The position numbers and the translations under genes were made by a program. From Crocosphaera subtropica ATCC 51142 (lineage in GTDB: Bacteria; Cyanobacteriota; Cyanobacteriia; Cyanobacteriales; Microcystaceae): a DNA stretch of 32,000 nucleotides. Each line of letters begins with the position of its first letter. The stretch's first letter is position 1. The notes beneath the pieces were generated by a model. It did not search any database. It saw only the letters and a list, made by a program, of their open reading frames with translations, and was not told where the DNA came from. Location of the stretch: positions 1-32,000 of the forward strand of contig NC_010539.1 in the NCBI RefSeq assembly GCF_000017845.1, read 5' to 3'. Positions 10,332 to 32,000 of the stretch are shown here, in pieces.

Positions 10332-11204
10332 TTATATATCAATAAACTGACTACTGCCTTCATTGGGTCTAGCGTGTAAATATTTAGAAGTAATGGTCAA
10401 AGATGAATGGCCAAGCGATCGCATCAGGACATCAATATCACAACCATTTTCTAAACTATGACAAGCATGAGCATGACGTAACCAATGAGTAGACGTATGT
10501 TCATTAATTCCTGCTTTTTCTGCGGTCTTTTTAACGATACGATGAAGTTGATGACGGTCTAACCGATTACCAAACCGTGTGGTAAACACCGCCTCTGTTT
10601 TCTGTGAACGAGGAAGCTTCTTTAACTCCTTCCAAAGATTATCACTAATTAAAACCGTCCTAACTTTACCCCCTTTCCCTGTGATAGTCGCTTGTCCCCC
10701 TTGTTTGCGAGGTCGTAAGTCACGCCAGTTGATACTCAGGGCTTCTGTTGCCCTTAGTCCCGTTGCATAAATCAAAGTTAATATTGTGCGATCGCGTCCC
10801 TCCTTGGCCGCTTCAATGAGTGCTTTTACCTCCGGCTGTTCTAAAATTCTTTCGTGTAAAGCATTAACCGAACTAGGGGCTTTAACCGCTTTGGCGATAT
10901 TCAGGGGTAAATAACCAATTTTCCAAGCATAAGAGAATAAACTCTTGATAATGGAGATTTTGAGGGCGATAGAATTTTGAGAATAGTCTTTGATGAATAG
11001 GAGATCAACCCATCGTGTCAAATCTTCTAAGAGGACATTAACTAACGGTTTTTCAACGAAACCGAGAAATTGGTTAACGGTGCGAGCGTAAGTTTTTTGG
11101 GTGCCGAGGCGTAACCCACTTAACCACAATTGGATAACTTGGGTATCGTTATCAACCTCTGTGATAGGGGGATGATAAGTATTTAGGGGTGTCATAGGGA
11201 ACAA
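10332..11204 (-). CDS. Tyrosine recombinase/integrase (XerC/XerD-like)
   Basis: 290 aa. SAM-like N-terminal domain. The catalytic signature is present: 'TGLRATEAL' (Arg), 'GKGGKVRTV' (Lys), 'HWLRHAHA' (His-x-x-Arg), and 'LGHSSLTITSKYLH' (His and the Tyr nucleophile). Confidence 0.85.
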   Translation of the reverse strand: MFPMTPLNTYHPPITEVDNDTQVIQLWLSGLRLGTQKTYARTVNQFLGFVEKPLVNVLLEDLTRWVDLLFIKDYSQNSIALKISIIKSLFSYAWKIGYLPLNIAKAVKAPSSVNALHERILEQPEVKALIEAAKEGRDRTILTLIYATGLRATEALSINWRDLRPRKQGGQATITGKGGKVRTVLISDNLWKELKKLPRSQKTEAVFTTRFGNRLDRHQLHRIVKKTAEKAGINEHTSTHWLRHAHACHSLENGCDIDVLMRSLGHSSLTITSKYLHARPNEGSSQFIDI

Positions 11205-11340: not shown

Positions 11341-12060
11341 ATGAGAATAACATTCTACGTGAATCGTGTTCCTGGGAATCCATTAAAAGGAAGAGGATGG
11401 ATTGATATCAGGAATTTGGAAGTAGTCAAACGTCTTAATATTCCCATGACAGGAGATTGTACTAATTCTCATATTCAAATTAAGGTAAAGTGTTCCTCAC
11501 CAGAGTATGAAAAGTTCAGACAAAAAGGTTATACTCGTTCAAAGTCGAATGGAATTTCAGTGGGAAAATTTGAAGAAGATTATCTAATGGTTACAGTTGC
11601 TTGTCATAGAGGAAAAGCTGGTGGCAAAAAGTTTCAGGTAATCGAAAAGCGAGAAAATGTAAGCTTGATAGTGCAAAAATCTTTAACCATAGAAGCGGTA
11701 AGGTTTTGGGCAGAAACTTGGGCAAGTGAAGGAGCTTATTTAGTAACTCCAGGAGGAAAAAAGATAGCCATCGAACAAAATAAAGTAATAGAAACTGAAT
11801 ATGTGTATTTGATATATAGTGAAGTTATGAATGCCATAAAAATAGGACGAGCTAAAAACGTAGAAAAAAGATTTACATCTTTGCAAACGGCTCATCCCTA
11901 TCCTTTAAAAATTATTAAAACCTTGAAAGTGTCTGGGAAAAAAGCTGCTATAGATTTAGAAAAACAGTTACATCAACAATTTGCTGATTATAGGTTGTCA
12001 GGAGAATGGTTCAAAGCTTGTGAGGCTTTAATGAATTTTTCTGATGATAAAAATAGCTAA
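11341..12060 (+). CDS. T5orf172/MUG113 (GIY-YIG superfamily) domain protein with an unknown N-terminal domain
   Basis: The C-terminal ~85 aa 'YVYLIYSEVMNAIKIGRAKNVEKRFTSLQTAHPYPLKIIKTL...LEKQLHQQFADYRLSGEWFK' fits the T5orf172 pattern (Y-hY..., KIG.t.n...R...lqt..p, GEWF). Confidence 0.6.
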   Translation: MRITFYVNRVPGNPLKGRGWIDIRNLEVVKRLNIPMTGDCTNSHIQIKVKCSSPEYEKFRQKGYTRSKSNGISVGKFEEDYLMVTVACHRGKAGGKKFQVIEKRENVSLIVQKSLTIEAVRFWAETWASEGAYLVTPGGKKIAIEQNKVIETEYVYLIYSEVMNAIKIGRAKNVEKRFTSLQTAHPYPLKIIKTLKVSGKKAAIDLEKQLHQQFADYRLSGEWFKACEALMNFSDDKNS

Positions 12061-12223: not shown

Positions 12224-13714
12224 ATGAGTCAATCAGTAGTCGTCCCTGATGAATTAGGGGAAATAATAACAGCTGTTATTGAATTTTATCAAGATGCAGT
12301 TGATAAGATAGAGCCAAAAATAGTCTTTTTAGAATTAAGAAAGAATGTAGTGGACTGGGTATCAAGAACTCAGTTAAAAATAGAAGAAAAAGAAATTCAA
12401 GCCACTGGATTAACAAGACAACAGCAAACAGCCTATAAAGAGATGATTAATTTTATTGAGAATAGTTCAGAGCAATACTTTAGGTTGAGTGGATATGCTG
12501 GCACAGGAAAAAGCTTTTTAATGGCTAAAGTAATTGAATGGTTAAAACAAGAAGACTATAAATATTCAGTGGCCGCTCCAACTAATAAAGCAGCGAAGAA
12601 CTTAACCCAAATTGCCCGTAGTCAAGGGATAAAAATAGAAGCGACAACCGTAGCTAAACTTTTGAAACTACAACCGACTATCGATGTTGATACAGGACAA
12701 CAAAGCTTTGAATTTAACTCGGAAAAAGAGTTAGAATTAAAAGACTATGATGTAATCATTATAGATGAATATTCTATGCTCAATAAAGATAACTTTAGAG
12801 ACTTACAACAAGCAGTAAAAGGAGGAGAAAGTAAGTTCATTTTTGTGGGGGATAGTTCACAATTACCACCAGTCAAAGAAAAAGAACCGATTGTAGCTAA
12901 TCATCCTGATATAAGAAAAAGTGCTAACTTAACTCAAATTGTTAGATACGATGGTGAAATAGTAAAAGTAGCAGAAAGTATCAGACGAAATCCACGGTGG
13001 AATCATCAAACTTATCCATTTGAAACAGTGGCCGACGGGACAATAATAAAATTGAATACAGAGGATTGGTTGCAACAGGCTTTGAGTCATTTTGAAAAAG
13101 AAGATTGGTTGAGTAATCCAGATTATGTAAGGATGATAACCTGGAGAAATAAAACAGCAGATAAGTATAATCAAGCTATTCGTGAAGCTTTATATGGGGA
13201 AAATGTAGAACAGTTAGTAGTGGGCGATCGCCTGATAGCAAAGAAACCAGTATTTAGAAGTTTACCAGGGGGTAAAAAGAAAGAGAAAAAGATAATTCTT
13301 AATAATTCAGAAGAATGCAAAGTAATAGAAACTCCCAAAATTAACTATAACGAAAAATATAAATGGGAATTTTATCAAGTAAAGGTAAGAACAGATGAAG
13401 GGGGAATGATTGAGTTAAGAATTCTCACTTCTGAATCAGAAGAAAAAAGACAGAAAAAGTTAAAAGAGTTAGCTAAACGAGCTAGAGAAGAAGAAAATTA
13501 TAGTGAGAAAAAGAAACAATGGGCTATTTATTATGAACTAGATGAGTTATTTGATAATATGGCTTATGCTTATGCCCTGACTTGTCATAAAGCACAAGGA
13601 AGTTCCATCGATAATGTATTTTTATTAGTATCGGATATGCACTATTGTCGAGACAAAACAAAAATGATTTATACTGGATTAACTAGAGCTAAAAAATGTT
13701 GTTATGTAGGTTAG
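12224..13714 (+). CDS. SF1B RecD/Dda-like DNA helicase
   Basis: Walker A 'GYAGTGKSF', Walker B 'VIIIDEYSML', 'FVGDSSQLPPV' (motif III), and the C-terminal 'YALTCHKAQGSSIDNVF' and 'MIYTGLTRAKK' (motifs V/VI). There is a Lys/Glu-rich insertion of the kind seen in Dda-type tower/pin regions. Confidence 0.8.
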   Translation: MSQSVVVPDELGEIITAVIEFYQDAVDKIEPKIVFLELRKNVVDWVSRTQLKIEEKEIQATGLTRQQQTAYKEMINFIENSSEQYFRLSGYAGTGKSFLMAKVIEWLKQEDYKYSVAAPTNKAAKNLTQIARSQGIKIEATTVAKLLKLQPTIDVDTGQQSFEFNSEKELELKDYDVIIIDEYSMLNKDNFRDLQQAVKGGESKFIFVGDSSQLPPVKEKEPIVANHPDIRKSANLTQIVRYDGEIVKVAESIRRNPRWNHQTYPFETVADGTIIKLNTEDWLQQALSHFEKEDWLSNPDYVRMITWRNKTADKYNQAIREALYGENVEQLVVGDRLIAKKPVFRSLPGGKKKEKKIILNNSEECKVIETPKINYNEKYKWEFYQVKVRTDEGGMIELRILTSESEEKRQKKLKELAKRAREEENYSEKKKQWAIYYELDELFDNMAYAYALTCHKAQGSSIDNVFLLVSDMHYCRDKTKMIYTGLTRAKKCCYVG

Positions 13715-14708: not shown

Positions 14709-15869
14709 TCACGAAAGATAGGGGCGAATTTTTTCAACCGCTACTGTCAGAATGTTAGCCGCTTTCTCAATGTCTTCATCAGTGGTAAATTTGCCAACTC
14801 CAATGCGTAAGGCTCCTTCAATCATCTCATCAGATAACTTTAATGCACGCAATACATGGGAAGGAGTAGCGACTCCCGATGAACAGGCTGCACCCGTAGA
14901 AATGGCTAATTGATGGCGAACTCTGGCGATAATAGCACTATTAGGAATCCCTGGTAGAGAAATATGAAGATTACCTGCAAGGCGAGCGTTTATGTTTCCG
15001 TTAACCTGTAAATCAGGGATTTGCGCTTGTAATAAGGTTTGTAAGCGATCTCGTTGCCTAGCAATCTGCTGTTCATCTTGCTCCATTTCTAATTGACGCA
15101 GACGACAAGCTTCCCCTAATCCCACAATACCAGGGACATTGAGGGTTCCTGAACGCAGTCCTTTTTGATGGCCACCCCCAAAGATAATGGGTTCGAGAGG
15201 ATAGCCTTTTCTCACAACTAATGCGCCAACGCCCTTGGGTCCATAAAGTTTATGGGCAGAAATAGCCAGGTAAGTAATGCCCCAGTCGTTGAAATTGATA
15301 GGAATTTTACCCACAGCTTGGGAGGCATCACAAAGGAAAGGAATATCGTATTGGTGGGCGATCTGACCAATTTTTTCAATGGGGTAAATATTGCCGATCT
15401 CATTGTTGGCTGCCATAACACAGAGAAGGGATAGTCCATCAGCACAGGTATTTTCCAGATTTTCTAAATCTAATCGTCCAAAACCATCAACTTTGAGGTA
15501 AATGAGTTCAGCTTGTCCTTTTTTGGCGAGCATTTGAATGGTGTCTAAAACGGCTTTATGTTCCACGGGAGAAACGGCGATGCGGGGGAGTTTAGGGGAA
15601 TTGATGGCTTGAATATGACCAATAATGGCGAGATTAATGCTTTCCGTTGCACCAGAGGTGAAGATAATGTCTTTGGGGGAAGCCTTAATCAGTTGGGCGA
15701 TTGCTTGACGGGCGTTGTAAACTGCTTTTTCAGCTTCATCGCCGTAGGTGTGGTCAATGCTGCTGGCGTTACCGAAGGCTGTAGTTAAGTAATAAACCAT
15801 TAATTCAGCCACTCTGGGGTCAACGGGGGTGGTTGAATGGTAGTCAAGGTAAATGGGTTGAATTGTCAT
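14709..15869 (-). CDS. Class V aminotransferase-fold cysteine desulfurase (NifS/IscS/DndA-like)
   Basis: 386 aa. 'IYLDYHSTTPVDPRV' at the N-terminus, the PLP-lysine motif 'ISAHKLYGPKGVGAL', 'RSGTLNVPGIVGLGEA', and the catalytic-Cys loop 'STGAACSSG'. The start codon overlaps the stop of the upstream 1841-aa gene (ATGA at 15866-15869). Confidence 0.9.
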   Translation of the reverse strand: MTIQPIYLDYHSTTPVDPRVAELMVYYLTTAFGNASSIDHTYGDEAEKAVYNARQAIAQLIKASPKDIIFTSGATESINLAIIGHIQAINSPKLPRIAVSPVEHKAVLDTIQMLAKKGQAELIYLKVDGFGRLDLENLENTCADGLSLLCVMAANNEIGNIYPIEKIGQIAHQYDIPFLCDASQAVGKIPINFNDWGITYLAISAHKLYGPKGVGALVVRKGYPLEPIIFGGGHQKGLRSGTLNVPGIVGLGEACRLRQLEMEQDEQQIARQRDRLQTLLQAQIPDLQVNGNINARLAGNLHISLPGIPNSAIIARVRHQLAISTGAACSSGVATPSHVLRALKLSDEMIEGALRIGVGKFTTDEDIEKAANILTVAVEKIRPYLS

Positions 15870-18800
15870 AGATTTTGACTTAAATCCTGTTTAATTGCTT
15901 CAGCAACTAAGGAAAATTCTTCATTCGATAAGAATGGCACTTGAGTATATATTAAATCTGATTCCCCTGGTAGTCTTGCGGCTAAATGTCCTTTGCCTAG
16001 AAGACATTCTCCTCCTTTTTGTCCCAAGGAAATTTCGGAAGTTCCTACACTCTCAACTCTTAAGATTAAGCGATTGCCTAAGTTATCTCGAAGCTGCATG
16101 GGAAAGACATTATTATCGGGACGTTGTGCTGCAAAGATTAGATGAATTCCGGCTGCTCTTGCTTTAACTCCTAAGCGTTGTACAGCAGAAGATACAGCAT
16201 TTTTATATTCTTCTACTAACATCCAATCAGCAAATTCATCATGAACTAAAAGAAGAACAGGCAATTGTTTTTCAGCAGAAACTTTTTGATTATAAACCAA
16301 TAAATTATTGACTTTTTGTTCTCTAAATAGTTGATAACGAGAATCCATTTCGCTAACAATTTTTTCAAATACTTCAATGCCTTGATATTGTTCAGTAATG
16401 ATTCCTTCTGTTAAATGGGGTAAGTCTTCTAAGGGGAAATAATCGGTTCCTTGTTTAGCATCAATTAAGTAAATTTTTACCAATTCTGGAGAATTAGTAG
16501 CGCAGACATCTAAGAGAAGATTTCTTAATAAGACTGATTTACCGCTTCCCGTTGCTCCGGCAATTAAAGTATGAGGGGCGTGCTGTTGAAGATGAGCAAA
16601 TTCTTCTCCTAAATTAAGATATAGTAATTCTCCATCAATTTCTTTGACTCCAATGATGAAACTAAGATTAACTCCTGCTTTTAGATTAATTTCTCGTTGC
16701 TTCCATACTTGAGAAAGGGAAATAATTTCTCGTTGGGGACGAGCGATAGAAACGATAATTTCCCCAGGCGCACCTAAGATATTGATGACATTTAACCCAT
16801 GAGTTGTTAATAGACTTGAACGACGAGTTTCAATATCTTTAATATTAAGACGATCTGAGCCTTTAAAACGAATTAAAGCAGCATTAGGGGTTAATCTTTG
16901 TCCTAATACTTTAGCTTGTAAATCATAGCTAATTAGAGCTTTTCGTAGTGTTGAAACGGTTGTTTCTAACCATTTTTTTTCTTGTTGCTCATTGATTTTA
17001 GATTCAGTTTGTTGATTAATCCATGTCGCTAAAGCAGGACTAGCCCAAGTTGTTTGTGTTATATTATTAACTTCTTTCTTTTCCTCATTTTTGTTCTGAT
17101 TTGTATAATTTAATTGATTTAAGTGGTTACTTTGACTATTATAATCAGAAACTCCATTACTATTTTGTTGGGAATTAAAGTCGTTAATAGGATGGTTATC
17201 ATTAGCAGCCTTATTAGGAGTTTTTAACGAATTTATGCTGTGACTAGGATGAATATTTTGAGGAGAAGTAACAAGGGATTGCTTTTGGTTTGAATTAATT
17301 GTTGTTAGATTCTCGTTTTGCAATGTCCTGTTGACTATTGTTTCAGTAGATTCTGTACTTAAACTTTCTATATATGCTATTTTTTCTGATGAAGCTGAAT
17401 CATCAAGAATTGGTAATTCTAAAATAGGATTTACCCAAACCACTCTATCAGCTGGAAATCTTGGTTCTGAAACTGTCCAAGGTTGTTCATTTCCTAATTT
17501 TTCTCGAATAGATGCTAAGGGTTGTTGGTGATGAATAGCTAATACTAATTGACGAACAGTTTCTCGATTAAATATTTCTTGATAACATCTATCTACTTTA
17601 GCAATTGGTATTTGATCGTTACTAACAGAGGTATCGCTAGGTCCAGAGATAAACACATGAGAATACCCTGATAAATCAAGGGGAATCGTGCCGTCTCTAA
17701 CACCTTTTCGCCATTCTTCAATGGAAATTGAATCAGTTGAATTAAATTCAATTCCATCTAATAATAAATCTCCTAAACGAGATAACCATAAATCTCGGTC
17801 AAGTCGCCCTGGACTTACAAATAAAGCATTAGCCATTCGTTCAACGGTATCTCTTAATTGATGTTGAGAACTTTTACGGGCATCATTTAATCCATTTGCT
17901 TCAATATATTTAGCTTCAGAAATAATTATTTTAAGAACAGGTTGCTCATTTTTTATTTGAGGACTGATAGCTAAAATATCAGCAATTCTTCCTTCTTTTT
18001 GTCCTAACCAACTAGCATAGTCATCTAAAAAATACCAACCAACAGGATGTTCTTCTCCTAATTCAGATAATAATAAAGCTTTACTTAATACCACTCCCAT
18101 TAATTCACTGGCATATTTACCACTTTTTGCGGCTCGTAATATAATATCCCCTGAAATGTCTTTAGCTTGCTCAATAAACTGTTCTGCTAACGTTTTGATA
18201 GTGGTTTCATCTAAGTCTAAATTTAAGCTTTCTAAACGGCGTTTGACAAGGACTTGTAACAGGTTCAAAGGAGCATTAGAAGATACTAAAAAATTACGGT
18301 CATCGCTGCGACTTTGTTGATAGCGAATGACATTAACACCTTGATTGATTAATTGTCGTCTTTCGAGTAAATCATCATAATTAACGACCCATTCTCCTAG
18401 ACGATGAACTTCTTTAAATACTGTGCTAGTGTCTTCATCTTGGAAGGAAATCTGTCTTGCAGGAAGAAAATGCTGATTTTTGGCACAATCTAAATCTACC
18501 CGTTTTAAACTACTATAAATGGCATCTAGATAAGTTTGTCCTACAGATGGTTGACTCGGACAGACTAAATAAACCGTCGATTTTAATTCGTCTTTAGCAG
18601 CAGGACGTTTTCTTGAGTAGCGTGTGGGAACGTGCTTGAGAATATCGGGGTTATCGTTAGATAAAGGGGTCGGTTGCCAAACTATTTCTGCTTGTCTGGA
18701 AATAATATCTTGAAGAAAGACAATATCAGCGATTTTTCCGTTAGATGAAGATGATGTGTTCGACATGACGCTGATTCGCAGTCTGGCCATAAAATCGTGA

Positions 18801-21391
18801 GTCCCTTCACTAGCGACAAAAGCATCTGCATCGGTTTGAGAACTTTCTATGAGTTGCTGATACAAATCACTTAATTTGGGGGAATCTCGATGACATAAAA
18901 TGACTTGACAACGAGCTTCATTATAGTTGTCTTGTAATTCACTTAGTTTTGTAATAACTGTTTGGGGAAGTCTAGTGGAGTCACATTGATAAAGAATGAT
19001 ACTCAAATTTGTTTGTTCATGGGGGAGTAATTCGAGGTATCGCTTCATTAAGTCTAGCAGTTTATTGGCTGCCTTTTTGGGGTCTTCATTGGTAGACTGT
19101 TGAGTTATATCTTTTATTGGTTGTTCAAGGAGACTGTAATCATTGACTGTATCAGACAGATAAAGTAATAAAGGTTCATTCCCTTTATAACCTAAACAAA
19201 CTTCGGGATAATAAGGGTGAGTGAGTTCATTTCTTAAATCAGAGAAGAATAAACGGGAATCTCCAAAATTAACGTCTTCTGTTGAAAGAATATGTTTCAG
19301 TAATCCTGAAATTTGGCGGGCTTTAATGCTCAAAGAGGCTAATCTTAAGGGATGCCAAGGCGTAATAATAGCAGCAGGTTTTCCTCGTTTGACTTCCACA
19401 CACCCTAAGCGTAAAATAGGTTCAATTAATTCCACTCGATTAGTATCACCCAGGGCATGATTAAGGAGAGTTTTAAGAAGTTCTTGATAGTCATCGCATT
19501 GGTGGATTAAAACAGGATGGGAAATCCCTTCTTGACTTAACCAACTATTCAGGGCTTTTGTATAAGTTTCTTTAAATTTTCCCCAAGCTTGTTTAATTAT
19601 TTCTGCGGATTCTGAAGATAAGCGATTATCTTGAACTGCCTGTTTAAGAGCCGTAGGAAACAGTTTAGCTAAGTCTTGTTTTCGGTCATATTTACTGACT
19701 AAAGAGCCTCTATCTTGTCGATAAGCAGCCATTAAAGTACCGACATCATCCAGAGAAATTCCTTGAAGACGACCTTTTTTGCTGACTAATTCCCGTGATA
19801 CTTCAGAGATAAGAAAAGGAGAGGGGTTGGAATTAACTAACCGGTTTAAGTCATCATGAAGTTCCATTCCAATACTATTGGGATTTACCTTCCAAATTAA
19901 TTGAATTTTGCTGATTAATTCTTGAGAAAAACAAGAACGAAGTTCTACATAAAATTTGATTTCACAAGCGGCTTTAGCTACAGAAACATTTTTTTTATAT
20001 TTTTTCTTATTTTTCGTTTGTTCATCTTTTAATAATTCATCATATTTAAACAGCCAGTGAGTCTCCCAAGTAATTTCAGGATAGGTTAACTGTTCAATCC
20101 CTCTATACCTTGTACAAAAATATAATCCCATGTCTGCATTGAGTTCTAACCATTTACTTTTACGGGAACTTTTTTGAGTTTTAATAATTAATTGAGTCGG
20201 ATTTTCTTGAGAATCAGCTTGGTCAAAGAGTCGCTCAAAGGCTTGAACTAAACCCACTAAAAAGTCAGTGCATTCGATGGGTTGACCGTAGACAAATTTA
20301 TCCCATTTGGTTTTGAGAGTACGGTCATTTTCTAATTCAGACCGATGGTTATCATAAAATTCTTTGTCTTCTTCGTTAGCTTCTTTGGCTTTTCTTTTCT
20401 TTAATGTTTCTAGATAGTCTAATTCAGATTCGGTTAAACTATCAGGGTATTCATCTTCATAAAATTGTTGGGTTAAACTATATAAGTCGGTTTTTTTTGT
20501 TTTTAATCCACTAAAAATAGCGTGAATATTATCTATTTCCCATTCAAATTTAGTTAAAGCTTTCCCTTGTTCATTCCATTCCGGCGGACTTTTAATGAAG
20601 GCTTGAATAATAGAATGGGCTTGCTCAGGAATGTCTTCTTTAACCTTTTCAAAGGTCGATTGTAACTCACTTTCTTCAATGGGTTTACGGGTAGGGGTTT
20701 GTTTGAGTAACAGACAAGCCCGTTTAGAAACCGCCTGTTGATACTTTTGTTGCCACTTTTGGGCGTGTCCCCAAGTTTTTTGGGGTATGGCTTCAAAATA
20801 CCCCGAATCACGGGGTAAACGTAAGGCAGGTAAAGCCCATCCCAAGGCATTAATGATAGGAACACTTTCTGAGGCGATGCGCTCACGAGTATCCATGACA
20901 TAGTTCGCAAATTGCTCTAAACTGCATTCGCTGGCTGCAAGTAGTCCTTTTAACGCTTTGTTCCAGTATTTTAATTGTTCATCAGGTAAATCTAAGCCCT
21001 CACTGGCCACGTCTACCCAAATTTCAATTTGTTCTTTTAAGAGTCCTGCACCCAAGGCAGAAATATCTTTTAAAGATTGTCCTTGGTCATCGTTAGTATT
21101 AGCTAATAGCAGACAAGGGCGGTCACAGGGAGCATGGCGTAGGTGAACGGTCTTTTCATCGGTTAAAATAGCTTCAGGAAGGTCATATCCTGCCACTAGA
21201 GTGCGAGGAATTTGGATTTTAATGTGGGGAGATAAGTCAGGGGTAGCGAGAATAGACTGACAAATGTTCGTGACTTGTTCTCCTGTTAAACGGTCTAAGA
21301 TAAACCGAGCAACTCCGTCTGAATCCTCTGTATTTAGGGATTCTCTGAGAAATTTTGTCGCTACTTGGCCAATTAAATCAATAGAATCCAT
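15866..21391 (-). CDS. Giant (1841 aa) DptH/DndH-like protein: large N-terminal region, PD-(D/E)xK-like nuclease motif, N/Q/S-rich linker, C-terminal FtsK/SpoIIIE-type translocase motor
   Basis: The FtsK motor is seen directly. 'LTPNAALIRFKGSDRLNIKDIE...GAPGEIIVSIARPQREIISL' is the beta-domain. 'LIAGATGSGKSVLLRNLLLDV' is Walker A (K1618, 16538-16540). 'LLLVHDEFADWM' is Walker B. 'AAGIHLIFAAQRPDNNVFPMQLRDNLGNRLILRV' is also present. The nuclease-like motif is 'ADILAIS...IIISEAKY' (D1138, E1159, K1161; 17909-17980). The DptH call rests on size, position after two coupled genes, and domain content. It was not confirmed by any search. Confidence 0.55.
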   Translation of the reverse strand: MDSIDLIGQVATKFLRESLNTEDSDGVARFILDRLTGEQVTNICQSILATPDLSPHIKIQIPRTLVAGYDLPEAILTDEKTVHLRHAPCDRPCLLLANTNDDQGQSLKDISALGAGLLKEQIEIWVDVASEGLDLPDEQLKYWNKALKGLLAASECSLEQFANYVMDTRERIASESVPIINALGWALPALRLPRDSGYFEAIPQKTWGHAQKWQQKYQQAVSKRACLLLKQTPTRKPIEESELQSTFEKVKEDIPEQAHSIIQAFIKSPPEWNEQGKALTKFEWEIDNIHAIFSGLKTKKTDLYSLTQQFYEDEYPDSLTESELDYLETLKKRKAKEANEEDKEFYDNHRSELENDRTLKTKWDKFVYGQPIECTDFLVGLVQAFERLFDQADSQENPTQLIIKTQKSSRKSKWLELNADMGLYFCTRYRGIEQLTYPEITWETHWLFKYDELLKDEQTKNKKKYKKNVSVAKAACEIKFYVELRSCFSQELISKIQLIWKVNPNSIGMELHDDLNRLVNSNPSPFLISEVSRELVSKKGRLQGISLDDVGTLMAAYRQDRGSLVSKYDRKQDLAKLFPTALKQAVQDNRLSSESAEIIKQAWGKFKETYTKALNSWLSQEGISHPVLIHQCDDYQELLKTLLNHALGDTNRVELIEPILRLGCVEVKRGKPAAIITPWHPLRLASLSIKARQISGLLKHILSTEDVNFGDSRLFFSDLRNELTHPYYPEVCLGYKGNEPLLLYLSDTVNDYSLLEQPIKDITQQSTNEDPKKAANKLLDLMKRYLELLPHEQTNLSIILYQCDSTRLPQTVITKLSELQDNYNEARCQVILCHRDSPKLSDLYQQLIESSQTDADAFVASEGTHDFMARLRISVMSNTSSSSNGKIADIVFLQDIISRQAEIVWQPTPLSNDNPDILKHVPTRYSRKRPAAKDELKSTVYLVCPSQPSVGQTYLDAIYSSLKRVDLDCAKNQHFLPARQISFQDEDTSTVFKEVHRLGEWVVNYDDLLERRQLINQGVNVIRYQQSRSDDRNFLVSSNAPLNLLQVLVKRRLESLNLDLDETTIKTLAEQFIEQAKDISGDIILRAAKSGKYASELMGVVLSKALLLSELGEEHPVGWYFLDDYASWLGQKEGRIADILAISPQIKNEQPVLKIIISEAKYIEANGLNDARKSSQHQLRDTVERMANALFVSPGRLDRDLWLSRLGDLLLDGIEFNSTDSISIEEWRKGVRDGTIPLDLSGYSHVFISGPSDTSVSNDQIPIAKVDRCYQEIFNRETVRQLVLAIHHQQPLASIREKLGNEQPWTVSEPRFPADRVVWVNPILELPILDDSASSEKIAYIESLSTESTETIVNRTLQNENLTTINSNQKQSLVTSPQNIHPSHSINSLKTPNKAANDNHPINDFNSQQNSNGVSDYNSQSNHLNQLNYTNQNKNEEKKEVNNITQTTWASPALATWINQQTESKINEQQEKKWLETTVSTLRKALISYDLQAKVLGQRLTPNAALIRFKGSDRLNIKDIETRRSSLLTTHGLNVINILGAPGEIIVSIARPQREIISLSQVWKQREINLKAGVNLSFIIGVKEIDGELLYLNLGEEFAHLQQHAPHTLIAGATGSGKSVLLRNLLLDVCATNSPELVKIYLIDAKQGTDYFPLEDLPHLTEGIITEQYQGIEVFEKIVSEMDSRYQLFREQKVNNLLVYNQKVSAEKQLPVLLLVHDEFADWMLVEEYKNAVSSAVQRLGVKARAAGIHLIFAAQRPDNNVFPMQLRDNLGNRLILRVESVGTSEISLGQKGGECLLGKGHLAARLPGESDLIYTQVPFLSNEEFSLVAEAIKQDLSQNL

Positions 21392-23077
21392 TTAAGTTTT
21401 CTCCACAGTGTAAGGATTAAGGACATAAGCACAAGCATCGGAAAGGCGTTTGAGTAACCCCAAGGATGCGAGGCGTTGTTCGAGACGTTCTGCATTATCA
21501 GAAAAAGCTTCAAGGTCTGCTTCTTTGCGCTGAATGATGTCAATGGCTTGTTTTTCACCAATTATGAAGCCATATTTTTGATAGAGTGTGTCTAAAAATT
21601 CTTGAAATTCCATCCGTTTTGGGACACAACAAAGTACCAAGGTTTTTAATAGGGAGTCGGTGGGTGCATATCGGGTGCGACGACTTCCCCTGCTCGAAGC
21701 GAGTCCAATTTCTTTTGTCCACTTACTATGAAATTGACCAACGTGCTGTTTATGTCTAGTAATTGCTGAGAGACGAATTTCTTCTAATAGTTCATCGGGA
21801 GAATTACATTTGATTTCATCCTTTTTATAGTAAATTTCTTCTTTGATAATTTCTAAGGCATCTTCTATGGAGTTGGCAGAGTTAAGACAGGTTTGCCATT
21901 CTGGAAGTTGAGACAGTCTTTTTATATAGTGTTCAACCGCTCGTTTACTCAGGTTATTATTGTTTAAAAAGGCATCGGAAGCTAGGTCACGAATAATCGT
22001 TTTTTTGGGAGCAATTATTTCTAAAATTAATTGAGGTTTATCTTGACTATTCAAGGTGGTTGTTGAGTTCAATGAATCTTCATTGGTATTAGCTATAGTT
22101 TCTGACTTAAATAATAGATTTTGTTGACTATTTAAGAGACTTTCTGAGGAGAATCTAGGGTCATCTTCATTATTTAAGACGGCCTTAGCTCGTTTGAGTA
22201 GGTAAATGACTAAATGGACTCCTGTAATAGTAACTAAATGGGGTAAAGAATCATAGTCAGGAAGATGGCAATTAAATAGATTTATCCAATCATTAGCTAA
22301 GTTTTCAAATTCATCAAGATGTTCATAGGGAAGATAGGGAGGACTGCTATCTTTTCCTCTTGGTTTTGTATCAGAATGATCATTAGGTTGAAGGGTAGCA
22401 ACTAATTTATTCCATTTACTCGATTGTTTATGATCTATTATTCCTAATTTTTTTAGATGGGTTAAAATGTCTAATTTTAAAGAACTACGACTAATCATGA
22501 GATAAAGTAATTCTCCATTTCTGGCAAAAAAACGACGGTCATTGCTATAACTATTCTTACTAATTCTTAAATCCTCATAAAGACAATTAACCCCATAGGG
22601 AAAGACAAATTTAGAAGTCCAACGTTTATTACTATCACCTTCAATGGCATTAGATTGAAGAAATCTTACCACTTCTAGAAAGTCCCGAAACCTTATAAAG
22701 CGTTCTTGTAAATAACTAAAGTTAGGGGTGTTAATACCTCCACAATTATCATTCATTAAAGTTAACCATTGTTGCCAACGTTCTTCTTCTGTTGGATATT
22801 CTGCATAAACTGCTTCTAGAAAAGGATTATTAAACAGGATATTTCGTAAATAAAGACGACTATAAGAGGGATATTCTAATTGATGATTTTCAGGTTCAAT
22901 AAAAGCTTGCTCTCTTTCTAATTGTGTTTGAACAATGCCTAAAAATTCTAGAAGGGTTAACCAAGGGGTTTGTTCATCATAAAGACGATGACCCCAAATA
23001 GCTTCATCAACCCACATTTCAGTTTCTCTATGGGTTTTATTATGAGATGTAGGTTTAGGAAGACGTTTTATTATCAT
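21392..23077 (-). CDS. Hypothetical protein, DptG/DndG-like by position (561 aa)
   Basis: Start overlaps the stop of the upstream gene (ATGA at 23074-23077). Its TAA stop directly abuts the ATG of the 1841-aa gene (TAAATG, 21389-21394). I recognised no enzymatic motif. There is an internal S/N/T-rich low-complexity stretch. Assignment is by synteny only. Confidence 0.35.
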   Translation of the reverse strand: MIIKRLPKPTSHNKTHRETEMWVDEAIWGHRLYDEQTPWLTLLEFLGIVQTQLEREQAFIEPENHQLEYPSYSRLYLRNILFNNPFLEAVYAEYPTEEERWQQWLTLMNDNCGGINTPNFSYLQERFIRFRDFLEVVRFLQSNAIEGDSNKRWTSKFVFPYGVNCLYEDLRISKNSYSNDRRFFARNGELLYLMISRSSLKLDILTHLKKLGIIDHKQSSKWNKLVATLQPNDHSDTKPRGKDSSPPYLPYEHLDEFENLANDWINLFNCHLPDYDSLPHLVTITGVHLVIYLLKRAKAVLNNEDDPRFSSESLLNSQQNLLFKSETIANTNEDSLNSTTTLNSQDKPQLILEIIAPKKTIIRDLASDAFLNNNNLSKRAVEHYIKRLSQLPEWQTCLNSANSIEDALEIIKEEIYYKKDEIKCNSPDELLEEIRLSAITRHKQHVGQFHSKWTKEIGLASSRGSRRTRYAPTDSLLKTLVLCCVPKRMEFQEFLDTLYQKYGFIIGEKQAIDIIQRKEADLEAFSDNAERLEQRLASLGLLKRLSDACAYVLNPYTVEKT

Positions 23078-24981
23078 AATTGAATCTCCAAGGTTCTTTC
23101 ATTAGCTATTCCATCGGCATTAAGTTCTAGTAAACGAATAATCATCTCTGAAGCTTCAGTTTCGTCGGCTTCTTCTTCTTTTTGTCTTCTAATATTAAGT
23201 TGTCCTAACAGTCGAGTTTTAAAAGCTAACATATCCTCATAACATTCTTGAGAAAAGTTACTGGGTAATGCTCCTTCTGCAACTCTGTTTAGGTATTCAT
23301 AGCGAGTTAAATTTAATCGGAGTTTTATAGGGTCAACTTCAGGGTGGGAAGATAGAGAAATAATAAAATCGGGAGTATTATGGTCAGTATTTAATTCAAC
23401 TGTGACACTTTCACCTCGTTTTTTAATAACAGAAATATATTCTTCAAAGACTCGACTAATCTTGGCTTGAGAATAACTACCAGATGTTGCTAAAACTAAT
23501 TGATCTTGATTATTTATCAATAATCCGGTAAAGATACGATTGATTCCTTTAACTATTTTAAAAATGAGATATTTAGGAATGGTTTGATTTTGTTTTAATG
23601 GTCTACAGACTTGTTCTAAATAGTCTCCTGCATACTGAAAAGCTGTTAATTCCCATAGTTTTAACTCTGCTACTCTATGCTGAGGAATAGTAAAGAATAA
23701 TCGCTGTCTTTGTGTGTGAAGTATATTTAAGAATTCTTCTTTACTGTCTTGAGAATCATTGCTTTCTAAATAGCTTTTTTGAGCAATACGAAATTGTTGA
23801 TGTGCGCCATAAAAAGTATCTGTTAAGACTAAGTTTTCATAATCTTGTTTTAAGTCCGGGTCATCTTCTCCAAAAATAAGAATATTATCAATATAGTTAC
23901 TGCTTTCTGTACCAATTCCAAAATATCTTAAAGCAACAAAGACATCAGTTTTATTTCGTTTTCTGCTAGAAAGATTTTCTCCAAATAGATTACTATAAGG
24001 ACTAGCTAAATAACCTGTTTTTTGAGTTGTAATTTTAGGAATTTGGTTACAGTTAAGTAATTTATCTTTGACATCAGGATGTCCTAAGATAATATTAGAA
24101 ATAAGGAGAAGTAATTGACGAATAGGAAGATGGGTTCCTTTATGACGAGATAATTCGAGAAGGTCAATAATTCGCTGTCTCATTAACTGTTGGTCATTTT
24201 TTCCATCGAGTCTGGTTTTGTTTTCCCAAATGGGACAGCGTTGCTGACTATCTGTAGGAGTTTGATAGGGACATTGACTACATTCTTCCCAACCAGGATG
24301 ATTTAAAACTGCATCAAGAATGCGAGAAAAGATTTCTTCGTTATTTAAGCGACTTAGGTTATAAAGAAGTAGGTTAAACTCAGGATTTTCTCTTTTTTCT
24401 TCTACCAATAAGGTTTCAATTAATTGACGTGCTTTTTCTATTTGAGGAGTGTTTTCTGCAACGTTCCATGCTTCGATGAGTTGTCCATCATTAGCAGCAA
24501 TTAAGTAAACTTTATCGGTATGATAGGGGTTGATGATCCCTTCTGCTATTTGAGGTAATAGTTGGGTTTTTTCTTCGTCTTGAATGGCACTGAGGTCTTT
24601 TATAATAATTAGAGTTTTTTGTAAGAGTGGTAGTTTATATATTTCTTGATTGGTTTCCCACTCTTCTTTTGACCCTCCTAATTTTTCCCAAATTTCTCGA
24701 CAGCAGAATGTTTTTCCATCTCCTGCTGTTCCGGTGAGAATCACCGATTTAGGGAAGTCAGATTGAAAGTTATCGATTAATTCTTGTAGGTAAGGAGTTT
24801 CAAAACAGATGGGTTGAATTTTGTTTTTCTTTAATGCTCGTTGAATTGCCTCATCATACATATTATCATTACGAGGAATTGGCCCATATTGACGGAGAAA
24901 GGTAATCCATTTTGATTTTTTGAAAGTAGAATTATAATTCATAATTAGAGTAATTAAACTTAAATATATATAACCAATCAC
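23074..24981 (-). CDS. P-loop NTPase, DptF/DndF-like by position (635 aa, or 622 aa from the ATG at 24942)
   Basis: Walker A 'LTGTAGDGKTF' (G84-T91) with a hydrophobic-Asp stretch 'TLIIIKDLS' about 45 aa later. The remaining ~450 aa have no recognisable motif. First gene of the tightly coupled trio. Confidence 0.4.
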   Translation of the reverse strand: MIGYIYLSLITLIMNYNSTFKKSKWITFLRQYGPIPRNDNMYDEAIQRALKKNKIQPICFETPYLQELIDNFQSDFPKSVILTGTAGDGKTFCCREIWEKLGGSKEEWETNQEIYKLPLLQKTLIIIKDLSAIQDEEKTQLLPQIAEGIINPYHTDKVYLIAANDGQLIEAWNVAENTPQIEKARQLIETLLVEEKRENPEFNLLLYNLSRLNNEEIFSRILDAVLNHPGWEECSQCPYQTPTDSQQRCPIWENKTRLDGKNDQQLMRQRIIDLLELSRHKGTHLPIRQLLLLISNIILGHPDVKDKLLNCNQIPKITTQKTGYLASPYSNLFGENLSSRKRNKTDVFVALRYFGIGTESSNYIDNILIFGEDDPDLKQDYENLVLTDTFYGAHQQFRIAQKSYLESNDSQDSKEEFLNILHTQRQRLFFTIPQHRVAELKLWELTAFQYAGDYLEQVCRPLKQNQTIPKYLIFKIVKGINRIFTGLLINNQDQLVLATSGSYSQAKISRVFEEYISVIKKRGESVTVELNTDHNTPDFIISLSSHPEVDPIKLRLNLTRYEYLNRVAEGALPSNFSQECYEDMLAFKTRLLGQLNIRRQKEEEADETEASEMIIRLLELNADGIANERTLEIQL

Positions 24982-25003: not shown

Positions 25004-26728
25004 TTAAGATGTATCTTTCCTTTGTGACCAAATTAGTAAAGCTAGTTCTTCTAATTCAGCTATTTTTAATGAATCAGTTACACAAAATAAATCAATATTT
25101 CCACCAACTTCTTGCTGAAGTTTAGATTTTAGAGTCTTTAAGACTGATTTTCCATAACGATATCTCTCACAATCTTGGTCATACATTTGATAACAGTTTG
25201 AAGCTATTTGTCCATTATTGATTCTTCCGTTACCTTTTTGACGAGATTGTTGTAATTCTATGTCTGTCCGACTATTTATAAACTTTTCTTTCGATTTTTC
25301 AGATTTTTCAGCAGTGGAATTACTGATAAGCTCTTGTATCCTATCTGTTGTTAATTGTGGATATAAAGATTGGATATGTCCAAGATTAATAAAATGAGAT
25401 TCTGCATCTGTTCCAGTTGTTAAAAAGCACAATATATTTGCTCGTTCAATTTTTTCTCTAAAATCGTTTGCTTCATCATCCGTTAAATAATCTCTATCTC
25501 TATGTAATAATATTTTAGTTTGAGAACTATGTTTTCGGATAAAAGCAGCTAAAACTAATGCTGTTTCAACTTTAGTACATCCTTTATATGACCAAATATC
25601 AACTTCATCCATTCTAAACCCTGATGCTTCTAGCAATGTTTCAATAGGTTTAGTGTCTTCATCTTCAGTTAATAAAACACATTTAATATTTTCAGTATTT
25701 AATAATAATTCATCTTTATCTAAAGCTCCAATATCTAGTAAAAGTTGAACAGTATCAAAATCTTTTTCATTTATAATTGTTCCATTCTTTAACCAATATA
25801 TTTTTGTCTTTTCTCGTAACGCATCAAGGAGATGTCTTGAATGAGTAGTTACTATAATTTGTAAATCGCGTTCTTCAGTCAATTTGATTAGCATTTTAGC
25901 TAATTTTCGTTGGTTATTTGGATGTAAATGCGAATCGGGTTCATCTAAAAGTAATATTTGAGGTTTATAAATATTAATATAAGATATAATTTGTATCGCT
26001 TGTAAAACCCCTGTACCAGCTAAATCTATTGGTAAACTATTTTCATCATTGGCTTGAATTTGACAATTAATATAATCATCACGTTCTGGATTAAACTCAA
26101 CAATAACTTTTAAGTCAGGAAATAAATAATTAAAGTCTGATATAAATTGTTTCCATTGTTCTGATTCATTGTGAAGAAGGTAAAGAACATTTCGGAATAC
26201 TTTATTGGCATCTCCTCTAGCAGCTGCCTTTCTAACAATCCCTGGAGTTTTACATTCTTCTACGTCAGGAATACCAGCTAGTCCAGGGACATAAATACTA
26301 TATGGTGTTTCTATGATTTGTAGTCTTTCTCCTAATTCTTTTCCTTCTACTGTAATCGATAAATTTCTATTTCTCCCTTTTCTCACTGTAACAAGAACAT
26401 TTTGTTTTTCTTGATTTTCTTCAAAAGAAATGATAATTGCTTGATCTTTATTTTCAACCAGTTTACCTCCATAGGCCAACGCATAAACATCTCTAAGAGG
26501 CGCATAGATTAGCTGCTGAGGGGATAATGAAGTTGATAATTTTTCATCCTTCCAATTTACATTACTCTGAAGACTAGCTGTTTGACCAACAGATACAGCA
26601 AATTGTATAGCTTGTAGAATGCTACTTTTTCCAGAATTATTTGAACCTACCAAAATATTAACTCTATCAAGGTCTAAAGTTAAATTTTCTAAATTCTTGA
26701 ATCTTTGTATAGTTATTTTGCCAAGCAT
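25004..26728 (-). CDS. OLD-family-like ABC ATPase + Toprim/DUF4435-like nuclease fusion (GajA-like or fused PARIS AriA-AriB-like architecture)
   Basis: The N-terminal half carries Walker A 'VGSNNSGKSS', a signature-like 'LAGTGVLQAIQ', Walker B/D-loop 'ILLLDEPDSHLHP', and H-loop 'IVTTHS'. The C-terminal half carries 'CVLLTEDEDTKP' (Toprim Glu), 'ILLHRDRDYL' (DxD), and 'GTDAESHF'. Confidence 0.7.
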   Translation of the reverse strand: MLGKITIQRFKNLENLTLDLDRVNILVGSNNSGKSSILQAIQFAVSVGQTASLQSNVNWKDEKLSTSLSPQQLIYAPLRDVYALAYGGKLVENKDQAIIISFEENQEKQNVLVTVRKGRNRNLSITVEGKELGERLQIIETPYSIYVPGLAGIPDVEECKTPGIVRKAAARGDANKVFRNVLYLLHNESEQWKQFISDFNYLFPDLKVIVEFNPERDDYINCQIQANDENSLPIDLAGTGVLQAIQIISYINIYKPQILLLDEPDSHLHPNNQRKLAKMLIKLTEERDLQIIVTTHSRHLLDALREKTKIYWLKNGTIINEKDFDTVQLLLDIGALDKDELLLNTENIKCVLLTEDEDTKPIETLLEASGFRMDEVDIWSYKGCTKVETALVLAAFIRKHSSQTKILLHRDRDYLTDDEANDFREKIERANILCFLTTGTDAESHFINLGHIQSLYPQLTTDRIQELISNSTAEKSEKSKEKFINSRTDIELQQSRQKGNGRINNGQIASNCYQMYDQDCERYRYGKSVLKTLKSKLQQEVGGNIDLFCVTDSLKIAELEELALLIWSQRKDTS

Positions 26729-26758: not shown

Positions 26759-27559
26759 TTACAAATGACACACTAAACAAGGCAAATCATCATCCTCCTC
26801 ATCTAAAACCACCTCTAACGCTTCGGATAAAGGTCGATTAGGGGCTGCTTTTTTCTCACGGGCGATCGCCTTCTCATGATTAGCGATAATCTCCTCTTTG
26901 CGTTCCAAAAGTTCTAGTAACGTTTCTCCTTCCGTCCAGGTGTAAGTTCTGCCATCCCTGTGATTAGATTCATATTCCACCGCCTTCGCAAACAAATCAG
27001 GATGTTCTTGGGCTAACATCACCCATTCATATTTGCGTTGGAAGAAACAAAAGAAACAGCCCGAACGACTTCGCCAGCGATAATAATCTGGCAAACCAAT
27101 CCCACTATCCTCTAATAAACGGATAATATCGGCTTTTACTAATCCTCGTTCCTTAAACGGAAAAACAGGCTTAATATTGGGCTTAGTAGAGATGTAACCC
27201 TCTCGATTTTCATCCGCACGAATGCCAATATAGCTAATAGCCTCATCCTCACCCACAAACTCCTCTAACGGCTTAATCTTCATTTTTACCGTACACCAGC
27301 GCATTTTTGGAGAAGGTAATAGACCATCGTGCATCGTTAACCAGTGGTCAAACCCTCGGTTTTCACTGAGATAATGGATTGTGATACCTAGACGGGCTTT
27401 AATGCGGTCAAGATACTCATAGGTTTCAGGGAGTTCTTTGTGAGTGTCACAGAAGAAATACTCCATATCTGGGATTTCCTTGTGCAGTAGTACCGCCAAA
27501 GCTGTGCTATCCTTGCCTCCTGAGAGTCCCAGTATGTGCCTTATTTTCTTTTGTGCCAT
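26759..27559 (-). CDS. Short (266 aa) PAPS reductase / PP-loop ATP-pyrophosphatase family protein (DndC/SspD-related catalytic core)
   Basis: PP-loop 'LGLSGGKDSTALAVLL' (S13-S18) and 'MRWCTVKMKIKPLEEF' (a PF01507-type block). Cys clusters 'SGCFFCFFQ' and the C-terminal 'PCLVCHL'. Contains one HIP1 site (26862-26869). Confidence 0.85.
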   Translation of the reverse strand: MAQKKIRHILGLSGGKDSTALAVLLHKEIPDMEYFFCDTHKELPETYEYLDRIKARLGITIHYLSENRGFDHWLTMHDGLLPSPKMRWCTVKMKIKPLEEFVGEDEAISYIGIRADENREGYISTKPNIKPVFPFKERGLVKADIIRLLEDSGIGLPDYYRWRSRSGCFFCFFQRKYEWVMLAQEHPDLFAKAVEYESNHRDGRTYTWTEGETLLELLERKEEIIANHEKAIAREKKAAPNRPLSEALEVVLDEEDDDLPCLVCHL

Positions 27560-28257: not shown

Positions 28258-28319
28258 TAATAATTAAGTTTGACTTTGCAACGAAATGCTATTAAGACTA
28301 AAAGTAAAAAGCTTAGCCC

Positions 28320-28889: not shown

Positions 28890-28941
28890 AATAGCCTTAC
28901 ATTGATGATTTTAAAAATAGGAACACTAAAAAATTAGAAGG

Positions 28942-29562: not shown

Positions 29563-29584
29563 AACTTGTCCTTACCCTCATTAA

Positions 29585-30112: not shown

Positions 30113-30123
30113 TTTTTAAATTC

Positions 30124-30934: not shown

Positions 30935-32000
30935 TTAACGGGCCACCTTTTTAGACTTACCCTTTTGAGATGAGGCTTTCTCTTGAAGCAAACTTACTCC
31001 TTCAAGAGAATTAGTATTTAACACCCTTTCTGTTAATTTCGCTAACACAGCTTGACGAATTTGCTCATTATCTGGCAGAATATCTAAAATTTGCTGAACG
31101 TATTTCTCTACTTTGTCTTCATTACTATTATCTACCCAAACCATCCGATGGGTTTCCTCCCCATCAGGACGAGTAACCGTAATACGTCGTGCTTCAAACC
31201 CGTCCCCCTTAGCGGCCACTTCTTTCTGCAACGCCTCTAAATTCTTAAACCGTCTAGCAATATCCGATAACTTAACCTCAAACCCCGTGACATCCTTATC
31301 TGTCCAAGACTCAGGGGGTTTATCGGAGATCACCATCACCACTGCTTCTAACCATTCTGAATCAGATTTATCCTCATCAGTGGCAACTTGGACAAAACTG
31401 CGTAAATTCCGTTCTACACACTGCCCTGCTAAATAACTCGCCCTTACTCGCAAATCTTCCCGCAGTTGCTTCTCCTGACTGCGTACCCCAAATGCTTCAT
31501 AGAGTAACTTTTGACAGTCGGTTAACAGGGTTTCATAGGCCGTATTAATTTCCCGTAACGCCTGAACTAAGCGAGTCCGCAGGGTTTTAGCAATGGTTCC
31601 ATCCTCTGCTTCTTCGGTTCCAATGGGGTCTAACCCACAAGCAACAGGAAGACTGGTAAAGATCAGTTCATCGGGTTCAACGGTTGTCTGTAATGCTTTG
31701 AGTACCCCTAATGCTTCTTTACCGAGTCGTTGGGTTTGTTTCGTATATGAGGGAAGTTTTTTGACAAATTGATAGAGAGGAGTCACTACAGTTAGTAAGG
31801 TAGCATTTCGTAGTTTACCTGCTTTTTTCAGCTTAGGATTGCGTAAAATGGACTCTAATTCTTTAAATACCTCTGACCGTAACCCCACCACTTCAAAATA
31901 TTTCACCGCAAAGCGAGACGGATCTTTAACCAATAATTCAAAGTGTTCTGCCCCTAAAATGGCAATAAAAGTCCCGTCTTGATATAACCCCACATCATCA
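30935..32000 (-). CDS. C-terminal ~355 aa of a larger protein truncated by the window edge; function unknown
   Basis: The 'start' given in the track (31993) is a GTG. The frame stays open to position 32000 (upstream codons read ...D-D-V-G-L), so the gene almost certainly continues beyond the window. It is helical and charged, with no catalytic motif that I recognise. Confidence 0.6.
   Translation of the reverse strand, partial: DDVGLYQDGTFIAILGAEHFELLVKDPSRFAVKYFEVVGLRSEVFKELESILRNPKLKKAGKLRNATLLTVVTPLYQFVKKLPSYTKQTQRLGKEALGVLKALQTTVEPDELIFTSLPVACGLDPIGTEEAEDGTIAKTLRTRLVQALREINTAYETLLTDCQKLLYEAFGVRSQEKQLREDLRVRASYLAGQCVERNLRSFVQVATDEDKSDSEWLEAVVMVISDKPPESWTDKDVTGFEVKLSDIARRFKNLEALQKEVAAKGDGFEARRITVTRPDGEETHRMVWVDNSNEDKVEKYVQQILDILPDNEQIRQAVLAKLTERVLNTNSLEGVSLLQEKASSQKGKSKKVAR

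Follow-up and report, generated by a model that had tools for sequence, protein, structure and literature searches.

SspH of a cyanobacterial phosphorothioate-linked defence locus, with a predicted PD-(D/E)xK nuclease domain tethered to an FtsK-type motor

The sspH gene and its operon

The window analysed here is a stretch of 32,000 nucleotides (nt) from Crocosphaera subtropica ATCC 51142 (contig NC_010539.1, positions 1 to 32,000), and it carries a run of four genes in the order sspF-sspG-sspH-sspA (Table 1). The product of the longest of them, at 15866..21391, is SspH, the large subunit of the SspFGH restriction module, in a cyanobacterial (Crocosphaera-like) copy. SspFGH works together with SspABCD, which places single-strand phosphorothioate (PT) modifications on DNA, and attacks the DNA that does not bear these marks (PMC8092258). 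Four parts are fused in this soluble protein, namely an N-terminal region of about 1040 amino acids (aa), a family-specific PD-(D/E)xK domain, a disordered tether of about 140 aa, and an FtsK alpha/beta ATPase. Taken jointly, the identity of the gene, this soluble four-part anatomy, and a mechanism that couples a DNA pump to a nuclease are very probably the best explanation of the observations.

The open reading frame (ORF) of sspH is intact, and its product is matched from end to end by the PADLOC SspH model PDLC02806 (2343.7 bits, E=0). All four PADLOC models of SspH match the protein, and the nuclease domain is covered by each of them. Membership in the SspH family is thus given by the profile, by the operon, and by the FtsK-like C-terminus, with sspB alone unseen. 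The closest homologue shares 97% identity over a 1331-aa query (aa 1-1331), and a second homologue, equally 97% identical to this query, is a protein from a Crocosphaera metagenome-assembled genome. These nearest matches are followed by other cyanobacteria and then by Bacillota, while Sutterella is found among the more distant representatives. The databases call the homologues ‘DNA translocase FtsK’ or ‘FtsK/SpoIIIE domain-containing protein’; the former label, common for the SspH family, is corrected by the present analysis. For the window, the outcome is mainly that a known defence gene, in a defence island of a cyanobacterium, is now annotated correctly.

The genes of the run are closely packed. 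ATGA overlaps are present at the sspF/sspG and sspH/sspA junctions, the start of sspA overlapping the stop codon of sspH by 4 nt, and the stop codon of sspG directly abuts the ATG of sspH. Given these junctions, sspF, sspG, sspH, and sspA are translationally coupled. The sspD gene and the end of sspC are located upstream of the run on the same strand, and the frame of sspC is open up to the window edge, where the ORF runs off the end.

Table 1. Coordinates of the ssp genes and of the parts of SspH in the window, with the basis for each assignment.
Feature	Window position	Strand	Basis
sspH, complete ORF	15866..21391	-	ATG start, 1841 aa plus stop codon; PADLOC SspH match
SspH N-terminal region, aa 1-1039, multi-domain	18275..21391	-	AlphaFold
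SspH PD-(D/E)xK-type nuclease domain with helical lead-in, aa 1040-1320	17432..18274	-	AlphaFold topology
SspH predicted catalytic core, aa 1096-1178 (E1096, D1123, D1138, E1159, K1161, Q1178)	17858..18106	-	Invariance
SspH Asn/Gln/Ser/Thr-rich flexible linker, aa ~1325-1462	17006..17419	-	Composition, variable length
SspH FtsK alpha-like domain, aa 1463-1550	16742..17005	-	Sub-threshold Pfam FtsK_alpha
SspH FtsK beta (RecA-like) motor, aa 1551-1841	15869..16741	-	Pfam FtsK_SpoIIIE, PDB 2IUU
sspA, cysteine desulfurase (386 aa)	14709..15869	-	PADLOC SspA 468.6 bits, DndA 470.4 bits; Pfam Aminotran_5
sspG (561 aa)	21392..23077	-	PADLOC SspG 621.4 bits
sspF (635 aa as listed)	23074..24981	-	PADLOC SspF 772.9 bits; Walker A GTAGDGKT at aa 84
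sspD, PAPS-reductase-like ATP pyrophosphatase (266 aa)	26759..27559	-	PADLOC SspD 381.7 bits; Pfam PAPS_reduct
sspC 3' part (C-terminal third)	30935..32000	-	PADLOC SspC, profile positions 808-1104 of 1104

Predicted nuclease domain, motor, and linker of SspH

An earlier note on this DNA had quoted several motifs, all of which lie in the sspH ORF and were found at the residue and nucleotide positions it gave. It had read D1138, E1159, and K1161 as the core of a PD-(D/E)xK nuclease. These residues belong to the motifs GRIADILAIS (aa 1134-1143, with D1138) and IIISEAKY (aa 1155-1162, with E1159 and K1161), and aa 1138-1161 are spanned by nt 17909-17980. Taken by itself, D-x(10-30)-[DE]-x-K is not informative, as this pattern occurs 16 times in SspH against 19.5 occurrences expected in shuffles. 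When the hydrophobic context of the strands is required as well, it occurs once, at D1138, against 0.04 expected by chance.

A profile search with the domain through 1.84 billion representatives retrieved 472 proteins. Their full-length members (about 1750-1870 aa) carry the nuclease domain at about residue 1040-1340, and for this reason the domain appears specific to SspH; the shorter entries resemble fragments or split forms. Across 53 full-length representatives of 50% clusters, which are 27-60% identical to the nuclease domain of the window, E1096, D1123, D1138, E1159, K1161, and Q1178 are each invariant (53/53). Among the best 150 representatives, the same residues are retained in 118/118, 128/128, 129/130, 140/141, 139/141, and 137/140 of the aligned sequences, respectively. 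Conservation of the D/E/K residues among homologues, on which the earlier note had staked its proposal, is therefore complete in the full-length set.

The segment aa 1040-1330 was aligned with 20 homologues and then modelled with AlphaFold, which gave a predicted local distance difference test score (pLDDT) of 88.2 and a predicted template modelling score (pTM) of 0.87. The model consists, in its own numbering, of helix 53-72, strands 79-82, 100-108, and 111-125, helix 126-153, and strand 199-210, i.e., the canonical alpha-beta-beta-beta-alpha-beta core, with the predicted catalytic residues on the expected elements. E1096 is on helix 53-72, strand 79-82 ends at D1123/D1124, D1138 opens strand 100-108 (strand 2), E1159 and K1161 are on strand 111-125 (strand 3), and S1175 and Q1178 are on helix 126-153. 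The best Foldseek match of the model is the Hachiman nuclease HamA (8vx9_A; E=0.062, prob 0.66), and the weak lists are enriched in PD-(D/E)xK enzymes such as HamA, FokI, McrC, MspJI, and Kpn2I, with further weak matches to a bunyavirus cap-snatching endonuclease, herpesvirus UL24, and Mrr-like, VRR-NUC, and Cas4 proteins. On the strength of topology and conservation, and not of a significant structural match, aa 1040-1320 quite probably adopt the PD-(D/E)xK fold, and the fold together with the invariance suggests that the domain would be catalytic.

The C-terminal part of SspH is an FtsK-type motor. Its Walker A motif AGATGSGKS occupies aa 1611-1619 (K1618; nt 16535-16561), VHDEFADWM at aa 1716-1724 supplies the Walker B residues D1718 and E1719, and the segment AAQRPDNNVFPMQLRDNLGNRLILRV at aa 1754-1779, which begins with AAQRPD, holds Q1756 and R1757, the sensor glutamine and arginine of AAQRP. 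K1618, E1719, Q1756, and R1757 are again invariant in 53/53 full-length representatives. D1138 of the nuclease site is 480 aa upstream of K1618, where the earlier note had put the nuclease motif about 450 aa upstream of the motor. The same note had described a full FtsK alpha/beta motor. The beta motor was recovered clearly, with Pfam FtsK_SpoIIIE (PF01580) matching aa 1600-1758 at E=2.6e-37. An alpha domain is likely at aa 1463-1550, where Pfam FtsK_alpha aligns over profile positions 10-98 of 101 with a score of 15.4 bits (E=0.022), which stays below the cutoff of 22.9. The best solved relatives of the motor are FtsK of P. aeruginosa (2IUU) and of E. coli (2IUS), followed by EccC/EssC and a conjugative coupling protein. 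A search with no more than the C-terminal fragment matches 2IUU at E=1.3e-30, and one with the whole of SspH matches solved FtsK at E=2.6e-28. The alignment with 2IUS of E. coli starts at aa 1517, and the FtsK alignment ends at aa 1834, seven residues before the C-terminus.

Nuclease and motor are joined by a low-complexity tether, whose composition agrees with the N/Q/S-rich linker that had been noted at about nt 17050-17420. The fraction of Asn, Gln, Ser, and Thr is 0.5-0.55 over aa 1331-1470 in windows of 40 aa. The sequence of the linker is not conserved among the aligned homologues and its length varies. In 117 aligned sequences, of which the window protein is one, the span corresponding to aa 1322-1472 has a length of 41-154 aa with a median of 83, and it measures 151 aa in the window protein. 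Tandem repeats were not found in the linker DNA.

The tether is also the place where the gene is divided in other lineages. For example, in locus L005 (2966-8201) sspH is split at the linker into a 1379-aa protein with the N-terminal part and the nuclease, which is 32% identical to aa 3-1298 and ends in a low-complexity tail, and a 369-aa FtsK alpha/beta protein, which is 49% identical to aa 1473-1838 and is followed by sspA. Similarly, the relative L003 (8001-14164) has the full order sspB-C-D-F-G-H, in which a 1444-aa SspH N-terminal part is followed by a 605-aa ORF that joins an FtsK motor (43% identical to aa 1469-1825) to an SspA-like segment. This 605-aa ORF may represent a genuine fusion, or it may have arisen artefactually in assembly or gene calling. 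Two of the PADLOC SspH models, of 1255 and 1400 positions, likewise stop after the nuclease domain. Because the splits in L005 and L003 and the shorter models all end there, the N-terminal part and the nuclease form the constant core of the family, and the FtsK pump is a separable partner, which is tethered in the window protein.

The first 1039 aa have no Pfam match. Their AlphaFold model (pLDDT 80.6, pTM 0.61) is fairly confident and multi-domain. A small alpha/beta unit is formed by aa 1-135, another alpha/beta region covers about aa 770-1039, and the model further contains long helical stretches and inserts rich in beta structure. A Foldseek search of the PDB with this model returned nothing at E<=0.001. 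Among the weak matches, for which the query region is unreported, Rossmann folds of S-adenosylmethionine (SAM) methyltransferases recur, led by CheR1 (5xlx_A; prob 0.99, E=0.13) and including MidA, Coq5, and BCDIN3D. The alpha/beta region at aa 771-1039 may be the source of these matches. No glycine-rich SAM loop is found in it, and therefore a methyltransferase fold at this place, if real, is probably inactive. The same region (18275-19081, -) holds invariant residues, e.g., D804, S805, R827, C828, H834, D889, and Q894. The N-terminal region would be a candidate for DNA or PT recognition and for the binding of partners.

Proposed mechanism, alternatives, and related systems

The behaviour of SspFGH is known by experiment from Vibrio anguillarum. 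In this host sspF, sspG, and sspH are all required; the module is toxic in PT-free cells, whose DNA becomes positive in terminal deoxynucleotidyl transferase dUTP nick end labelling (TUNEL), and it suppresses the replication of T4 DNA (PMC8092258). The toxicity is relieved by SspBCD modification, and not by dndBCDE (PMC8092258). Both the DNA damage in PT-free cells and the block of phage DNA replication are experimental results for the Vibrio system only (PMC8092258). In the published work the DNA-damaging activity is not assigned to a subunit. The earlier note had described the protein as a ‘translocating restriction effector’, which is borne out as the role of the family, the protein being SspH of SspFGH (PMC8092258).

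The anatomy of SspH suggests how such damage might arise. By homology to hexameric FtsK, the FtsK domains would form a ring on double-stranded DNA that pumps this DNA at the expense of ATP, and the pumping would move the DNA past the tethered nuclease domains. The PD-(D/E)xK domains, judging by their fold and invariant residues, would then nick or cut the DNA without host PT marks, and the marks made by SspABCD would protect self DNA by stopping or excluding the complex. SspF, a Walker-A NTPase, and SspG, with its MAD7-like C-terminus, are required partners that may regulate or target the complex. Ring assembly, catalysis, and the manner of PT sensing are all predictions of this scheme. A broader reading, for which the chances appear evenly balanced, is that a PD-(D/E)xK nuclease domain, not described before and not matched by any sequence model of Pfam or the PDB, is common to all SspH proteins, and that this domain is the missing DNA-damaging activity of SspFGH; in the same reading the N-terminal part and the nuclease are constant, and the FtsK motor is detachable, being fused, free-standing, or fused to SspA.

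Several observations weigh against this picture. The nuclease model had no Foldseek match in the PDB or in BFVD at E<=0.001, so that of the structural checks proposed in the earlier note the AlphaFold model yielded a canonical nuclease core for aa 1040-1320 and the Foldseek comparison yielded no significant match. Against Pfam, aa 1040-1330 gave at E<=10 solely a meaningless match to DUF7716 (E=0.043), and a profile search of the PDB sequences with the same segment gave nothing below E=0.77. As for the locus, sspB is not found within the window and, if present, would be beyond the window end, and the ssp genes are interrupted by five unrelated small ORFs and an extra ATPase. Finally, Southern blots of the Vibrio system did not reveal discrete breakage products of phage DNA (PMC8092258), and the cleavage by SspFGH may therefore be nicking or heterogeneous.

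Some of these points would equally suit a reading in which the PD-(D/E)xK-like domain is not catalytic and serves in DNA binding or PT sensing, with SspH acting solely as motor and scaffold and the damage being done by SspF, by SspG, or by a host nuclease that is recruited. The domain has no significant match to any characterised nuclease, the Vibrio system gave no discrete cleavage products, and inactive domains of the restriction-endonuclease fold are common in the related ‘HerA/FtsK capture’ systems (PMC10853773). Neither SspF nor SspG, however, matches a nuclease family in Pfam, NCBIfam, or PADLOC beyond its own family. Inactive derivatives of PD-(D/E)xK enzymes normally lose catalytic positions, whereas the E, the D, the ExK, and the Q of the second helix are all kept in the 53 diverged representatives. 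Such a non-catalytic role is hence considered unlikely, and a catalytic domain is preferred.

The motor invites two other readings, of which the more obvious is a housekeeping FtsK/SpoIIIE translocase for chromosome segregation, in keeping with the names of the homologues in the databases and with the match of the motor to solved FtsK. SspH, however, reaches 94 bits with the NCBIfam FtsK model, whose cutoff is 1566, the unrelated N-terminal sequence of about 1460 aa matches the SspH models, and the gene is embedded in the ssp operon. There is no membrane-spanning hydrophobic segment, the highest 19-residue Kyte-Doolittle mean being 1.47 and located inside the motor, and FtsK_gamma gave no match in SspH at E<=1. 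The housekeeping identity, which is very improbable, was rejected on the absence of the defining anchor, the gamma domain, and the family score. Even less credible is an EccC/EssC-like ATPase of type VII secretion or a TraB-like ATPase of conjugation that pumps its substrates, a reading prompted by NCBIfam matches to EccCa (E=7.5e-32), EssC, and TraB and by the PDB match to EccC5. All scores fall well short of the curated cutoffs (110.9 bits against 509.15, 101.3 against 778.4, and 34.6 against 800), SspH has a single ATPase domain and not three, membrane segments are again lacking, and no secretion or conjugation genes are adjacent. SspH was accordingly not accepted as a type VII or conjugation ATPase because of these scores, and the matches reflect the shared fold of the FtsK clade.

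The motor of SspH is thus an FtsK-type pump and not the cellular FtsK, as anchor and gamma domain are absent. The two share the alpha/beta motor with Walker A, Walker B, and the sensor glutamine and arginine, whereas SspH is without the membrane anchor and without the gamma domain that reads KOPS. The linker also differs in what it joins; in FtsK it connects the membrane domain to the motor, and in SspH the nuclease to the motor.

The similarity of the SspH C-terminus to FtsK/SpoIIIE was already published in 2021 for Vibrio anguillarum FF-93 (Wang et al., 2021; PMC8092258), and no homology was reported there beyond the Walker A motif of SspF and the FtsK-like end of SspH (PMC8092258). The window protein resembles the Vibrio SspH in belonging to the same family by full-length profile, in the order sspF-sspG-sspH, and in the linkage to ssp modification genes, of which sspA, sspD, and the 3' part of sspC are seen in the window. 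It differs in being a cyanobacterial copy with sspA downstream of sspH, an unusually long linker, and a cluster interrupted by the ABC/OLD-like ATPase and the five small ORFs. A nuclease domain in SspH is mentioned neither in PMC8092258 nor in the later papers that were consulted. The conserved PD-(D/E)xK domain and the split and fused forms are hence modest additions to the known SspH, the gene itself being of a known family.

The closest parallel in design is DndH/DptH, a protein of about 1700 aa in which a restriction-endonuclease-fold domain is followed by a HerA/FtsK ATPase at the C-terminus, and which, with the Walker-A protein DndF and the DNA-binding DndG, restricts DNA without phosphorothioate (Rakesh, Aravind & Krishnan, 2024; PMC10853773). 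Upstream of its nuclease, DndH is described as having target-recognition domains and a methyltransferase that is inactive (PMC10853773), and nickase and translocase activities have been reported for the DndFGH complex (PMC11662687). This design of restriction endonuclease plus HerA/FtsK was published in 2022-2024. SspH has the same order of domains and likewise has F and G partners, and it differs in being paired with the Ssp (single-strand PT) genes and not with Dnd genes. The earlier note had pointed to DndH/DptH and had not named the SspH family; its restriction effector stands, without detectable sequence similarity to DndH. No match of SspH to DndH or DptH was obtained in PADLOC or NCBIfam, searches with fragments at E<=10 included, and the solved C-terminal domain of DndH, 7ES4 (cited in bioRxiv 10.1101/2025.10.09.681413), is not among the PDB matches of SspH even at E<=10. 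SspH may work like DndH, and by every sequence test it is not a member of DndH. The methyltransferase and target-recognition modules of DndH are hinted at in SspH by insignificant Foldseek matches (E>=0.13), and the parallel with its N-terminal region is offered as a lead only. If the methyltransferase-like fold is real, a very remote kinship between SspH and DndH is even conceivable.

Another comparable system is MADS, in which a mandatory core of three genes, MAD6-MAD7-MAD8, is coupled to a DNA-modification module (bioRxiv 10.1101/2023.03.30.534895). SspG resembles MAD7 at its C-terminus (NCBIfam E=1e-13), and the SspH motor (15869-16663) matches the mad8 model of 314 positions (E=1.5e-19); the short mad8 resembles the split forms of SspH with a stand-alone FtsK protein. 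No MADS model matches the N-terminal or nuclease parts of SspH, and the modification in MADS is methylation and not phosphorothioation. From the two matches, the core MAD6-8 may be the methylation-coupled counterpart of SspFGH.

If the reading of SspH as a nuclease with a tethered pump is true, the protein would add a second and independent instance to the design known from DndH, in which a ‘nuclease captures an FtsK pump’, and the separate genes of other lineages show that the nuclease and motor halves are separable. The invariant predicted nuclease site, about 480 aa upstream of the invariant ATPase site, offers concrete point mutants and truncations, which allow tests of the cooperation between DNA pump and nuclease in phosphorothioate-based immunity.

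Neighbouring genes in the window and in relatives

The arrangement of the ssp genes varies among the relatives. In the closest relative (locus L001), an SspE-like GmrSD gene precedes sspF-G-H-A and takes the slot that is filled in the window by a 574-aa ABC/OLD-like ATPase. In Chroococcopsis gigantea (L002:5742-16452) sspD-F-G-H-A are contiguous, with sspF directly after sspD, and neither sspB nor sspC was found within 10 kb on either side of these genes, so that the modification genes are encoded at another place of that genome or are lacking.

The 574-aa ATPase of the window (25004-26728, -), located between sspD and sspF, matches Pfam AAA_15/AAA_21 and has NsnB, AriA, and mad3-like matches in PADLOC; its C-terminal 245 aa matched no family. 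Five consecutive small ORFs (175-235 aa; 27673-30831, -) between sspC and sspD have hydrophobic N-termini and matched no Pfam family. For sspF, the PADLOC match begins at residue 26 and an ATG is present at codon 14 (24943-24981, -). The listed GTG start is therefore probably too far upstream, and the true start is probably this ATG. Scans for promoters and terminators gave the same counts as in shuffled sequence and are for this reason uninformative.

A PrimPol/DUF3987 protein of about 1200 aa is encoded at 1-3621 (-) and is also present near the ssp genes of the closest relative (L001:15016-18615). The window further encodes a ParA protein (5059-5703), an integrase (10332-11204), a T5orf172/MUG113 protein (11341-12060), and a RecD-like helicase (12224-13714). 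With these five genes the window looks like a mobile island, which suggests a mobile defence island in a cyanobacterium. A CBS-CP12 gene, a cyanobacterial marker, is likewise found in the window.

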